Made by a program: the position numbers and the translations under genes. This document shows, one piece after another, positions 32,824 to 38,467 of a stretch of 64,000 bases of DNA (its first letter is position 1; each line of letters opens with the position of its first letter). The DNA is from Eledone cirrhosa. Its lineage: Eukaryota. The notes below the pieces were generated by a model. The model ran no database searches. It was not told where the DNA came from and was given only the letters and a program-made list of their open reading frames with translations. The stretch spans positions 12,307-76,306 of the forward strand of contig CAXHJY010000482.1 in the NCBI GenBank assembly GCA_964016885.1, read 5' to 3'.

Positions 32824-32831
<8 letters not shown>

Positions 32832-32872
32832 ATACTTTGGGAGAGTCATGTTGCCAATAAAATCACACGCAC
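32824..32872 (-). mobile_element. 49-bp inverted PLE pLTR end capping the 615-bp array
   Basis: ATATTGTTATACTTTGGGAGAGTCATGTTGCCAATAAAATCACACGCAC matches 9832-9881 with about 3 differences. Confidence 0.85.
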
Positions 32873-35800
32873 GGATTTCGTTTTTCGTTAACTCGTGCGC
32901 CGATTTTTCGATACTCGATCTTTCTAATATATTTAGCTCTGGACATAGCTATCCACCAGTTAATTTTATTGCTCATATTTTGTCGATTCTATTGAGTGAT
33001 GAATAGCTTTTGTTTTATTTTAACATGTCTATTGAGCACTCTAATTCGATATGTGTATTTCCACATTCACTCGAATTATTTTCGCGGATATAGGGGTCAT
33101 CTCCCTTGTCTAATGCCATGTGCGTTTTTCACCGCTAGTTGACTCCTTTGCCGCCAGGATAAAACTCGTTGACGACGTAAACTCCATTCCACTTATTCTA
33201 GTAGGCTTTTATATTTATATGTGAGCTGATAGAGTACTGTCTAAGGATTTACAGAAACCCATGAAGCTAGATTTAACACCTTTCTAGTGGGTCCGGGTAT
33301 GATTTTACATTCATTTAAATTATTGACGTATTGTTTTATTGATATTTTTTATCTGTTTGGCCCGAATCTTCCTTTATCGATTTTAAATCGTATGGTTGAT
33401 TGTAGACTTGTTCTATATGTGACGGTATTTTAACGATAGTTATAGCTCTGATTCATCTGAATTATTGAGCCCTCTGCCGCTCATATCGGATTTCGTTTTT
33501 CGTTAACTCGTGCGCCGATTTTTCGATACTCGATCTTTCTAATATATTTAGCTCTGGACATAGCTATCCACCAGTTAATTTTATTGCTCATATTTTGTCG
33601 ATTCTATTGAGTGATGAATAGCTTTTGTTTTATTTTAACATGTCTATTGAGCACTCTAATTCGATATGTGTATTTCCACATTCACTCGAATTATTTTCGC
33701 GGATATAGGGGTCATCTCCCTTGTCTAATGCCATGTGCGTTTTTCACCGCTAGTTGACTCCTTTGCCGCCAGGATAAAACTCGTTGACGACGTAAACTCC
33801 ATTCCACTTATTCTAGTAGGCTTTTATATTTATATGTGAGCTGATAGAGTACTGTCTAAGGATTTACAGAAACCCATGAAGCTAGATTTAACACCTTTCT
33901 AGTGGGTCCGGGTATGATTTTACATTCATTTAAATTATTGACGTATTGTTTTATTGATATTTTTTATCTGTTTGGCCCGAATCTTCCTTTATCGATTTTA
34001 AATCGTATGGTTGATTGTAGACTTGTTCTATATGTGACGGTATTTTAACGATAGTTATAGCTCTGATTCATCTGAATTATTGAGCCCTCTGCCGCTCATA
34101 TCGGATTTCGTTTTTCGTTAACTCGTGCGCCGATTTTTCGATACTCGATCTTTCTAATATATTTAGCTCTGGACATAGCTATCCACCAGTTAATTTTATT
34201 GCTCATATTTTGTCGATTCTATTGAGTGATGAATAGCTTTTGTTTTATTTTAACATGTCTATTGAGCACTCTAATTCGATATGTGTATTTCCACATTCAC
34301 TCGAATTATTTTCGCGGATATAGGGGTCATCTCCCTTGTCTAATGCCATGTGCGTTTTTCACCGCTAGTTGACTCCTTTGCCGCCAGGATAAAACTCGTT
34401 GACGACGTAAACTCCATTCCACTTATTCTAGTAGGCTTTTATATTTATATGTGAGCTGATAGAGTACTGTCTAAGGATTTACAGAAACCCATGAAGCTAG
34501 ATTTAACACCTTTCTAGTGGGTCCGGGTATGATTTTACATTCATTTAAATTATTGACGTATTGTTTTATTGATATTTTTTATCTGTTTGGCCCGAATCTT
34601 CCTTTATCGATTTTAAATCGTATGGTTGATTGTAGACTTGTTCTATATGTGACGGTATTTTAACGATAGTTATAGCTCTGATTCATCTGAATTATTGAGC
34701 CCTCTGCCGCTCATATCGGATTTCGTTTTTCGTTAACTCGTGCGCCGATTTTTCGATACTCGATCTTTCTAATATATTTAGCTCTGGACATAGCTATCCA
34801 CCAGTTAATTTTATTGCTCATATTTTGTCGATTCTATTGAGTGATGAATAGCTTTTGTTTTATTTTAACATGTCTATTGAGCACTCTAATTCGATATGTG
34901 TATTTCCACATTCACTCGAATTATTTTCGCGGATATAGGGGTCATCTCCCTTGTCTAATGCCATGTGCGTTTTTCACCGCTAGTTGACTCCTTTGCCGCC
35001 AGGATAAAACTCGTTGACGACGTAAACTCCATTCCACTTATTCTAGTAGGCTTTTATATTTATATGTGAGCTGATAGAGTACTGTCTAAGGATTTACAGA
35101 AACCCATGAAGCTAGATTTAACACCTTTCTAGTGGGTCCGGGTATGATTTTACATTCATTTAAATTATTGACGTATTGTTTTATTGATATTTTTTATCTG
35201 TTTGGCCCGAATCTTCCTTTATCGATTTTAAATCGTATGGTTGATTGTAGACTTGTTCTATATGTGACGGTATTTTAACGATAGTTATAGCTCTGATTCA
35301 TCTGAATTATTGAGCCCTCTGCCGCTCATATCGGATTTCGTTTTTCGTTAACTCGTGCGCCGATTTTTCGATACTCGATCTTTCTAATATATTTAGCTCT
35401 GGACATAGCTATCCACCAGTTAATTTTATTGCTCATATTTTGTCGATTCTATTGAGTGATGAATAGCTTTTGTTTTATTTTAACATGTCTATTGAGCACT
35501 CTAATTCGATATGTGTATTTCCACATTCACTCGAATTATTTTCGCGGATATAGGGGTCATCTCCCTTGTCTAATGCCATGTGCGTTTTTCACCGCTAGTT
35601 GACTCCTTTGCCGCCAGGATAAAACTCGTTGACGACGTAAACTCCATTCCACTTATTCTAGTAGGCTTTTATATTTATATGTGAGCTGATAGAGTACTGT
35701 CTAAGGATTTACAGAAACCCATGAAGCTAGATTTAACACCTTTCTAGTGGGTCCGGGTATGATTTTACATTCATTTAAATTATTGACGTATTGTTTTATT

Positions 35801-38455
35801 GATATTTTTTATCTGTTTGGCCCGAATCTTCCTTTATCGATTTTAAATCGTATGGTTGATTGTAGACTTGTTCTATATGTGACGGTATTTTAACGATAGT
35901 TATAGCTCTGATTCATCTGAATTATTGAGCCCTCTGCCGCTCATATCGGATTTCGTTTTTCGTTAACTCGTGCGCCGATTTTTCGATACTCGATCTTTCT
36001 AATATATTTAGCTCTGGACATAGCTATCCACCAGTTAATTTTATTGCTCATATTTTGTCGATTCTATTGAGTGATGAATAGCTTTTGTTTTATTTTAACA
36101 TGTCTATTGAGCACTCTAATTCGATATGTGTATTTCCACATTCACTCGAATTATTTTCGCGGATATAGGGGTCATCTCCCTTGTCTAATGCCATGTGCGT
36201 TTTTCACCGCTAGTTGACTCCTTTGCCGCCAGGATAAAACTCGTTGACGACGTAAACTCCATTCCACTTATTCTAGTAGGCTTTTATATTTATATGTGAG
36301 CTGATAGAGTACTGTCTAAGGATTTACAGAAACCCATGAAGCTAGATTTAACACCTTTCTAGTGGGTCCGGGTATGATTTTACATTCATTTAAATTATTG
36401 ACGTATTGTTTTATTGATATTTTTTATCTGTTTGGCCCGAATCTTCCTTTATCGATTTTAAATCGTATGGTTGATTGTAGACTTGTTCTATATGTGACGG
36501 TATTTTAACGATAGTTATAGCTCTGATTCATCTGAATTATTGAGCCCTCTGCCGCTCATATCGGATTTCGTTTTTCGTTAACTCGTGCGCCGATTTTTCG
36601 ATACTCGATCTTTCTAATATATTTAGCTCTGGACATAGCTATCCACCAGTTAATTTTATTGCTCATATTTTGTCGATTCTATTGAGTGATGAATAGCTTT
36701 TGTTTTATTTTAACATGTCTATTGAGCACTCTAATTCGATATGTGTATTTCCACATTCACTCGAATTATTTTCGCGGATATAGGGGTCATCTCCCTTGTC
36801 TAATGCCATGTGCGTTTTTCACCGCTAGTTGACTCCTTTGCCGCCAGGATAAAACTCGTTGACGACGTAAACTCCATTCCACTTATTCTAGTAGGCTTTT
36901 ATATTTATATGTGAGCTGATAGAGTACTGTCTAAGGATTTACAGAAACCCATGAAGCTAGATTTAACACCTTTCTAGTGGGTCCGGGTATGATTTTACAT
37001 TCATTTAAATTATTGACGTATTGTTTTATTGATATTTTTTATCTGTTTGGCCCGAATCTTCCTTTATCGATTTTAAATCGTATGGTTGATTGTAGACTTG
37101 TTCTATATGTGACGGTATTTTAACGATAGTTATAGCTCTGATTCATCTGAATTATTGAGCCCTCTGCCGCTCATATCGGATTTCGTTTTTCGTTAACTCG
37201 TGCGCCGATTTTTCGATACTCGATCTTTCTAATATATTTAGCTCTGGACATAGCTATCCACCAGTTAATTTTATTGCTCATATTTTGTCGATTCTATTGA
37301 GTGATGAATAGCTTTTGTTTTATTTTAACATGTCTATTGAGCACTCTAATTCGATATGTGTATTTCCACATTCACTCGAATTATTTTCGCGGATATAGGG
37401 GTCATCTCCCTTGTCTAATGCCATGTGCGTTTTTCACCGCTAGTTGACTCCTTTGCCGCCAGGATAAAACTCGTTGACGACGTAAACTCCATTCCACTTA
37501 TTCTAGTAGGCTTTTATATTTATATGTGAGCTGATAGAGTACTGTCTAAGGATTTACAGAAACCCATGAAGCTAGATTTAACACCTTTCTAGTGGGTCCG
37601 GGTATGATTTTACATTCATTTAAATTATTGACGTATTGTTTTATTGATATTTTTTATCTGTTTGGCCCGAATCTTCCTTTATCGATTTTAAATCGTATGG
37701 TTGATTGTAGACTTGTTCTATATGTGACGGTATTTTAACGATAGTTATAGCTCTGATTCATCTGAATTATTGAGCCCTCTGCCGCTCATATCGGATTTCG
37801 TTTTTCGTTAACTCGTGCGCCGATTTTTCGATACTCGATCTTTCTAATATATTTAGCTCTGGACATAGCTATCCACCAGTTAATTTTATTGCTCATATTT
37901 TGTCGATTCTATTGAGTGATGAATAGCTTTTGTTTTATTTTAACATGTCTATTGAGCACTCTAATTCGATATGTGTATTTCCACATTCACTCGAATTATT
38001 TTCGCGGATATAGGGGTCATCTCCCTTGTCTAATGCCATGTGCGTTTTTCACCGCTAGTTGACTCCTTTGCCGCCAGGATAAAACTCGTTGACGACGTAA
38101 ACTCCATTCCACTTATTCTAGTAGGCTTTTATATTTATATGTGAGCTGATAGAGTACTGTCTAAGGATTTACAGAAACCCATGAAGCTAGATTTAACACC
38201 TTTCTAGTGGGTCCGGGTATGATTTTACATTCATTTAAATTATTGACGTATTGTTTTATTGATATTTTTTATCTGTTTGGCCCGAATCTTCCTTTATCGA
38301 TTTTAAATCGTATGGTTGATTGTAGACTTGTTCTATATGTGACGGTATTTTAACGATAGTTATAGCTCTGATTCATCTGAATTATTGAGCCCTCTGCCGC
38401 TCATATCGGATTTCGTTTTTCGTTAACTCGTGCGCCGATTTTTCGATACTCGATC

Positions 38456-38467
<12 letters not shown>
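32872..38467 (+). repeat. Tandem array of a 615-bp unit, 9 full copies plus about 60 bp
   Basis: CGGATTTCG at 32872, 33487, 34102, 34717, 35332, 35947, 36562, 37177, 37792 and 38407; no differences seen between copies; no long ORF. Confidence 0.97.

Follow-up and report, generated by a model that had tools for sequence, protein, structure and literature searches.

The 64,000-nucleotide (nt) stretch of the Eledone cirrhosa genome analysed here (contig CAXHJY010000482.1 of assembly GCA_964016885.1; hereafter the window) contains nine identical tandem copies of a 615-bp unit without coding capacity, placed between (TA)n tracts and directly beside a 49-bp piece of a Penelope-like element (PLE), hereafter the cap. 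The locus raises the question of what kind of element the unit is, and by which route so uniform an array was inserted. On the sequence evidence, it is quite probably a non-long terminal repeat (non-LTR) retrozyme, whose tandem transcripts would be cut and circularised, the circles then being copied into (TA)n with the reverse transcriptase (RT) of another element, probably a Penelope-like one.

As assembled, the array (positions 32872-38467, + strand) comprises 5596 bp and 9.10 copies of the unit, with 35.9% GC and 100% identity among full units, and represents a single insertion of the youngest family (family A, about 99.9% identity). The longest ATG-initiated open reading frame (ORF) of the tandem unit is 47 aa and the longest stop-free frame 62 aa. 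At its 3′ terminus the array ends in CTAATATAT, followed by a (TA)n target remnant (38468-38491); this fixed end (38440-38467, +), with a conserved stem-loop before it and TA microhomology, is the putative internal priming site. On the 5′ side, a further (TA)n tract (32775-32823) precedes the cap and the array. The initial annotation, which had described a non-coding 615-bp unit amplified about 9.1 times, devoid of the cap sequence and running out into (TA)n, is borne out on each of these points.

A variant hammerhead fold in each unit

The strongest conservation in the family was found in CAGAAACCC and GGGUCCGGGU. Together these make up the right half of a hammerhead, inside which a hairpin covaries; a relaxed descriptor scan placed the left half about 80 nt upstream. 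The first copy of this variant type I hammerhead lies at 33164-33298 (+) and eight more follow at steps of 615 (last copy 38084-38218), the motif being present in 9/9 window units. In order, it consists of the helix I 5′ strand ACUCG (33164-33168, +), paired with CGGGU at 33294-33298; the core strand U3 U4 G5 A6 C7 G8 A9 (UUGACGA) plus one extra nucleotide, here C (33169-33176, +); a 76-nt helix II domain with a GUAAA/UUUAC base and a branched or interrupted hairpin inside (33177-33252, +); and an extra A, G12 A13 A14, helix III (ACCC/GGGU, with the inner covarying hairpin) and C17 (33253-33293, +). The predicted cut falls at 33293/33294. As in type I hammerheads, three helices surround the core and helix I is open, with a 3-8 pair that is either the natural U-A covariant or U-G.

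The hammerhead was parsed in 60 of 80 non-redundant copies, with helices I and II both of at least 4 bp in 49. The 3-8 pair of the parsed copies was U-A in 49, U-G in 7 (window copy included) and another combination in 4; U3-G8 arises in several separate lineages. The first helix II pair was G-C in 54 of the 60, an A-A or C-A mismatch coming before it in every case, and the extra nucleotide at the helix II base was A in 49 and C in 11. Across the family, the helix II domain measures 75-80 nt. In the 3.0 Gb genome, the complete hammerhead pattern occurred in 4175 copies (control: 0). The U3-A8 pair is a natural, active covariant and a U-U mismatch at 10.1/11.1 is tolerated in nature, as described in the accessible text of PMC3088659.

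Among 27 aligned natural monomers, U4 G5 A6, A9, G12 A13 A14, A15.1-U16.1 and the NUH site were conserved in all, the right half being partly fixed by the way in which the loci were found. In the three helices, 96% of cells were paired and 16 cells were changed on both sides. None of 500 shuffles was as good, in a comparison where related sequences can beat shuffles and where pairs with double changes (3) were not above shuffles; slid controls reached 18-52%. The one-sided variation in helix I consisted entirely of C/U opposite G, which indicates a structure working on the + strand only.

A Rfam scan of the unit and 8 relatives returned no ribozyme, which carries no evidential weight because the clear hammerhead of a PLE in the window was likewise without a match among the best 150 of 152 results. 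A strict descriptor scan found nothing in the unit and also missed this PLE control. With the relaxed descriptor, only one of four controls chosen by hand gave a match (in one of the other three, the coordinates truncated the motif), and a pass over the whole window recovered the PLE hammerhead in both arms. The variant would be missed by canonical or minimal descriptors. Hairpin, hepatitis delta virus-like, pistol, twister, small nucleolar RNA-box and RNA polymerase III A/B-box readings were dropped as not conserved, as judged by eye when the alignment was compared with their consensus features, and there were hints of a helix II/loop III pseudoknot, which did not hold consistently.

The statement of the initial annotation that the unit has no canonical hammerhead therefore holds literally, and does not extend to hammerheads as such, a complete variant type I fold being found in every unit. 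Its suggestion of an undescribed, ribozyme-free class finds no support: the variant hammerhead is conserved across families that are 53-89% identical to one another, which would assign the unit to non-LTR retrozymes instead.

A dispersed family with one fixed end

The exact 3′ junction with (TA)n occurred 723 times in the genome and the internal unit-unit junction 1422 times (control: 0 for each). Of the 19 arrays from the DNA search, 18 shared the same terminal base and the remaining one stops at an assembly gap; their 5′ ends were scattered. A fixed 5′ end at unit position 566 was dropped as an artefact of the search window. Among 80 C1 loci sampled in list order from the 3′-junction search, 32 were shorter than one unit, 22 contained one full unit and the rest reached up to 12 units or more, with 7 loci extending to the edge of the fetched stretch. 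Across hundreds of loci, sizes ranged from 0.07 to 19 units, the longest among the arrays listed carrying 19 hammerhead copies. Separate arrays differ in length, haplotype and flanks, which are unique, and are found on many contigs.

Older relatives showed the same layout. Family B, with 3183 first-look candidates in the genome, is represented in the window by about 1.3 copies of a 591-bp unit of the same architecture (56-810, +; hammerhead fold at about 465-603), and a core pattern search led to the further families. Among 59 relatives found via the core motif, and hence unbiased for the 3′ end, the homologous 3′ site was the end in 55, with TA adjoining in 52. Family A ends in CTAA before T and the other families in GTTT/GTTTG, where the end slips by 0-4 nt. 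Among the 73 5′ junctions that could be resolved, 51 lay on (TA)n and others joined clipped neighbours in either orientation. The presence of (TA)n on both sides of the insertions masks any target-site duplication. No long terminal repeats (LTRs) are present, given the fixed 3′ end and variable 5′ end; neither a primer-binding site (PBS) nor a polypurine tract (PPT) was searched for.

A fixed 3′ end with scattered 5′ ends corresponds to the polarity of target-primed reverse transcription (TPRT), with the + strand as RNA. The description of the unit as a mobile, non-coding structured RNA agrees with these short dispersed arrays with one defined end, unlike an ordinary satellite with large uncapped blocks and undefined ends. 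The cap is no general feature of the family, an end of its PLE directly adjoining the array at only one of the 73 resolved junctions, that of the window.

An independent public run (library type not recorded) contained a 645-nt contig of one unit plus 30 nt, from another haplotype with 8 differences, which is the shape expected when a cyclic repeat is assembled. The core-pattern scan gave 0 matches in viral sequences, and 5 metagenome matches, GC-rich and without profile similarity, were taken as chance. Sequence set X1 was left out as C-depleted in appearance.

Some features of single lineages or loci were also recorded. Changes between family A lineages cluster at unit positions ~196-325, before and within the helix II domain, the 3′ half being almost static. 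At one 5′ junction (L038), a short inverted copy of the upstream flank of the locus itself starts the array, in a snap-back- or template-switch-like manner. Four copies of one older family are spaced at 3-5 kb at locus L221 (C1:200.87-200.89 Mb), probably within a larger duplicated unit.

Footprints of the proposed copying mechanism

Haplotypes were compared in 38 arrays with at least two full units (243 units), of which 17 (L031-L047) had been chosen for identity to the window. They resolved into 19 array-fixed, nested haplotypes, the arrays being uniform inside and differing from one another. Thirteen variants were fixed across one array and private to it, 44 occurred in single units, and lineage variants were mixed in 2 arrays only. 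Such array-wide private variants require a single monomer as template. At locus L047, five of the 13 units (5, 9, 10, 12 and 13) carry one and the same variant, as may result from conversion, unequal exchange or mixed assembly haplotypes.

Unit-level changes were strand-biased in the 34 arrays with at least 3 units (149.5 kb, 40 variant sites), with 13 T>C against 0 A>G (p = 0.003 after composition; 7/6 by assembly orientation). Wobble errors in the first-strand cDNA, or its deamination, would produce such a bias, which does not suit ordinary mutation in the germline. A-to-I editing was rejected as the source of the variants, no A>G excess being seen on the + strand.

The 5′ ends lay 0-30 nt past the predicted cut in 17 of 55 sub-monomer insertions but in 4 of 54 multimer insertions (p = 0.003), with 3 and 2 in the two adjoining bins, and in 8 of 31 (p = 1e-4) among the loci that had not been used to pick this interval, its choice after the first loci were seen counting against the result. 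The excess in sub-monomers alone points to a linear cut monomer, as a stall site on a circle would act at every turn. At locus L052, a two-unit array without (TA)n has the predicted cut nucleotide exactly as its first base. The further a haplotype was from the youngest one, the shorter were its arrays (rho = -0.70 for n = 36, with 12 as the upper limit set on length), and arrays seem to be born long. The fixed 3′ end is 254 nt downstream of the predicted cut and ~360 nt from the other monomer end.

Predicted folding and a competing helix

For a 142-nt window segment (33161-33302), the unconstrained minimum free energy structure was the hammerhead fold. A conserved CCCG (33361-33364, +) competes with helix I for CGGG, and this CGGG:CCCG helix, conserved in 27/27 monomers and with a probability of at least 0.5 in 12/27 whole circles, is predicted to lock the ribozyme in the circle. 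Covariation extends to other helices of the monomer (93% paired, with double changes in 7 pairs). Whole-unit folding was modestly better on the + strand (z = -1.87 compared to -0.98); circular-fold z-scores were larger and, being derived from 8 shuffles, too noisy to use. With the whole alignment, RNAalifold gave a weak structure (-12.9 kcal/mol) and chose the competing helix.

The Penelope-like element and the cap

The PLE at 9832-10800 (+) belongs to the same group as the cap. It is 5′-truncated, with an inverted arm, a GIY-YIG tail, a hammerhead core (at 10535 and 10023) and a 57-nt tail, and its relatives carry an ORF for RT with a C-terminal GIY-YIG. Two 3′ ends about 57 nt apart were seen in these PLEs, inverted arms mostly starting at the proximal one and main bodies ending at the distal one; the main bodies ended in the tail (19), in TA (16) or otherwise (2), which resembles the two start sites described for PLEs.

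The cap (32824-32872, -) is the inverted 3′ end of a hammerhead-bearing PLE. Its identity to the arms of the PLE at 9832 and 10726 amounts to 92-94%. No exact match to it exists in the genome, where 36 others are one mismatch away, and 3 of its 49 positions depart from the commonest PLE arm, found in 24 of 40 sampled arms. Its description as near-identical to a PLE arm is thus correct as to the group and too strong as to the sequence. It starts where PLE inverted arms start and joins the array over 1 nt of microhomology, without TA.

The cap is probably an older neighbour clipped by a target deletion. Its interpretation as the mark of a joint insertion event is not supported, in view of the single direct junction, the clipped neighbours found in both orientations, and a private change in the cap compared to none in the array.

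The putative helper reverse transcriptase

The helper is likely a PLE. That a circular-RNA cargo is copied by TPRT with a PLE as the likeliest helper, as initially proposed, finds support as an interpretation in the polarity, the (TA)n ends and the internal priming. Initiation at an internal site and an AT-rich or microsatellite target agree with an end fixed 254 nt from the predicted cut and then (TA)n, where priming would take place. According to the accessible text of PMC11167929, internal initiation is unique to PLE RT and AT-rich DNA is cut; that of PMC4209133 reports PLE hammerheads with U3-A8 in the core and with one nucleotide left unpaired on the 5′ side of helix II. Homology to PLE pseudo-LTRs is found in 21 of 57 Xenopus retrozyme families.

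Naiads prefer (TA)n as target and Neptunes microsatellites, and Neptune-like PLE ORFs were present in the fetched loci. These loci also contained ORFs that we take, from their motifs, to be Naiad-like and RTE-like. The presumed Naiad-like PLE frames are candidate helpers (L049, 2243-4705, +; L056; L031; L096), one of them of 821 codons. Matches on both strands were seen in three distinct loci and one duplicate pair, apparently as separate insertions.

Proposed life cycle

The array would be transcribed from the + strand, and the hammerhead is predicted to cut the nascent RNA between GUC and C into 615-nt monomers. By analogy with known retrozymes, a host ligase would close these into circles, in which the downstream CCCG is predicted to lock the helix I strand. 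Insertions end at a single site beside (TA)n, where the helper would nick the (TA)n and prime inside the RNA. The RT would then roll around the circle for up to 19 turns and stop at random, an uncircularised monomer giving run-off at the cut end. The 5′ ends are mostly joined to (TA)n and sometimes to clipped neighbours. Arrays are shorter in older haplotypes, which would reflect birth as long arrays followed by collapse.

Weighing the evidence

Several observations weigh against the retrozyme reading or its PLE helper. The G10.1-C11.1 pair does not stand directly beside the core, the N-A mismatch coming first; neither this mismatch at 10.1/11.1 nor the U3-G8 of the window copy is among the variants in the accessible text of PMC3088659 and PMC4209133, and both could lower ribozyme activity. 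A parent or relative with a short helix II was not found in the genome. The 142-nt segment is no stabler than shuffles (z = -0.97), and the family B copy in the window folds into the competing form. Helix I has a probability of at most 0.09 in whole circles of all 27 monomers, and of at least 0.2 in the nascent transcript of only 9 of 27, with 0.00 for the window copy. Five variants common to several units of one array point to some DNA duplication or conversion after insertion, and the 6:2 ratio of G>A to C>T is not significant. As for the helper, no joined self-inverted arm was present in 147 loci with matches, the second start site 30-40 nt away (the optional tail) is absent, 55/59 loci ending at one site, and no profile match to PLE ends was obtained in the fetched loci, most PLE families of the genome being outside this sample.

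An origin at the DNA level only, by Helitron/Helentron-type rolling circle, as an ordinary satellite or through an assembly artefact, is very improbable and largely refuted. Helitrons and Helentrons have a CTRR 3′ end and a fixed 5′ end; the CTAA before T of family A resembles such an end at an AT target, whereas the ends of the other families, with their slippage, are not CTRR, and the variable end is the 5′ one. Identical units could also come from a collapsed or duplicated assembly, against which stand the arrays of differing length and haplotype with unique flanks on many contigs and the contig of another haplotype in the independent run; the covarying, strand-specific RNA structure speaks against any of these origins. 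It is also quite unlikely that the hammerhead is a relic or protein-dependent, the template being a long linear multimer transcript and the arrays being expanded or homogenised as DNA, even though the folding models do not favour the active fold and some variants are common to neighbouring units. In the accessible text of PMC11167929, insertion in vitro did not require the hammerhead of a PLE, which cleaved with protein only, and in that of bioRxiv 10.64898/2026.07.22.740005, 8 of 9 Xenopus retrozymes were uncleaved in vitro. Against this reading stand core nucleotides kept, with compensated helices, across families down to about 55-60% identity, the array-wide private variants with their single-monomer template, and the 5′ ends that pile up at the cut in the first pass only; the longest arrays are the youngest, the opposite of slow DNA expansion.

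Within the retrozyme reading, the same RNA cycle could be served by a long interspersed nuclear element (LINE) of the RTE clade or by several RTs, which is unlikely. An RT fragment that we take to be from an RTE-like LINE is found at 29500-30531 (-), split by and ending in (TA)n; the lack of inverted arms and of a second start site in the cargo also favours this reading. RTE-related retroposons are reported to have a microsatellite insertion signature (PMC6007223), but priming 254 nt and ~360 nt from the monomer ends is of a kind reported as unique to PLEs in PMC11167929, the peculiarities of the hammerhead are of PLE type (PMC4209133), and no 3′ tail common with an RTE end was seen. A common origin of cap and array in a single event, in which the RNA of a helper PLE would have primed the second strand and the cap would name the helper, is rather doubtful. 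The exact start of the cap and its junction without TA would suit it, as would two loci (L086, L092) with a directly joined inverted end of a (TA)n-targeting element and the capacity of a PLE protein to cut and extend both strands in vitro (PMC11167929, accessible text). Besides the single occurrence among 73 loci, however, clipped neighbours in sense orientation (L034, L085, L064) are as common as inverted ones, and the cap lacks an exact genomic partner in spite of 0 changes in the 5596-bp array, a private change in 49 bp having a ~1% chance at the unit-level 2.7e-4 per base. A clipped older neighbour remains the preferred explanation of the cap, and a PLE that of the helper.

Other elements in the window and sampled loci

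An element that is abundant, flanked by (TA)n and equipped with inverted arms, and whose hammerhead-like stretch reads CAGAAGA-stem-GAAA in place of CUGA, was noted at 32579-32775, 10939-11190, 19071-19247 and 57152-57327; its inverted end caps the insertion at locus L086. A CUGAUGA-stem-GAAA pair on opposite strands (18392, +; 18150, -) is probably an inverted PLE-type end of another family. A large inverted repeat (31590-32011; also at loci L034, L140 and L125) represents a further hammerhead-bearing, (TA)n-targeting family, and in a short repeat (42452-42568; also at L085 and L142) the hammerhead core reads CUGAUGAAGGACUAGC..CCGAAAC, although the copy within the window is degenerate. A SINE-like (short interspersed nuclear element-like) repeat occurs in tandem at 12493-12977 and 15676-16059, with units of 181 and 197 bp. 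The short interspersed repeats of the genome are octopod in appearance.

Significance and comparison with known systems

The helper and mechanism of animal retrozyme copying are left open in the accessible text of PMC7229834 and bioRxiv 10.64898/2026.07.22.740005. The present family offers four genomic footprints of the proposed route (an internal priming site, uniform arrays with private variants, strand-biased unit errors and run-off at the predicted cut) and names an exact RNA, start site and target for in vitro work with a PLE protein. A naturally self-locking 600-nt circle, as predicted, and an RT copying more than 10 kb from a circle would be of practical interest. Neither Rfam nor canonical descriptors pick up the ribozyme variant, and the counts of retrozyme surveys are therefore probably too low. 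A bolder proposal is possible, though tentative: a new hammerhead class (U3-R8, N-A step, 80-nt helix II, lock) would drive a circular RNA replicon of viroid size with ongoing transposition, its copies would record each rolling-circle TPRT step by a PLE enzyme, per-turn RT errors included, and similar descriptor-invisible retrozymes would be present in the unclassified tandem DNA of other animals. A description of the family was not found in the literature searched, which left out most subscription papers, Repbase, Dfam and supplements.

Among PLEs, the pseudo-LTR hammerheads (Cervera and de la Pena 2014, PMC4209133; as described in its accessible text) share the type I topology and a helix I of 4-5 bp, as well as, in cases including Schistosoma Cercyon with U3-A8, the unpaired nucleotide 5′ of helix II and the U3-A8 covariation. 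They are minimal, with a helix II of 7-8 bp and almost no helix III, and act as dimers, whereas the present hammerhead has a stable helix III, a large helix II domain and an extra A before G12, without homology to the sampled PLE ends. Neptune/Naiad PLEs (Craig et al. 2021, bioRxiv 10.1101/2021.04.23.441226) and the Poseidon PAc (PMC11167929), as far as their accessible texts describe them, have in common with it a target that is (TA)n or AT-rich, truncation at the 5′ end, insertion in tandem and an internal start of reverse transcription; the present family differs in having no ORF, inverted arm or optional 30-40-nt tail, and in whole-unit tandems of up to 19. Plant LTR retrozymes and hammerhead viroids resemble it in circles of ~600 nt and more and in the predicted blocking of the ribozyme by a segment of the circle complementary to it (PMC7229834, accessible text). 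The plant elements differ in their type III hammerheads within LTRs, PBS/PPT and Gypsy helpers, and viroids in not being genome-encoded.

The closest resemblance is to metazoan non-LTR retrozymes, as presented in the accessible text of PMC7229834 and of Li, Clavereau and Pollet (2026; bioRxiv 10.64898/2026.07.22.740005), the latter naming no mollusc among its samples. They likewise consist of tandem units that measure a few hundred bases, are low in GC and do not code for protein, from monomers to multimers, with one type I hammerhead per unit and no LTRs, and a life cycle with a circle and a PLE helper has been proposed for them too. Units of ~580-620 nt exceed the 150-450 of PMC7229834 and lie within the 51-972 of the bioRxiv study. 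In contrast to those retrozymes, the hammerhead departs from the usual form in its U3-A8/G8 pair, its N-A mismatch, a helix II domain of 75-80 nt and a long helix III; a single internal priming site, fixed in position, is combined with strict (TA)n targeting, and a self-lock is predicted, most circles in PMC7229834 being without one. Judged by its sequence, the family falls within the definition of a non-LTR retrozyme, and its apparent novelty is in the ribozyme architecture and the predicted lock, which depart from those of described retrozymes.

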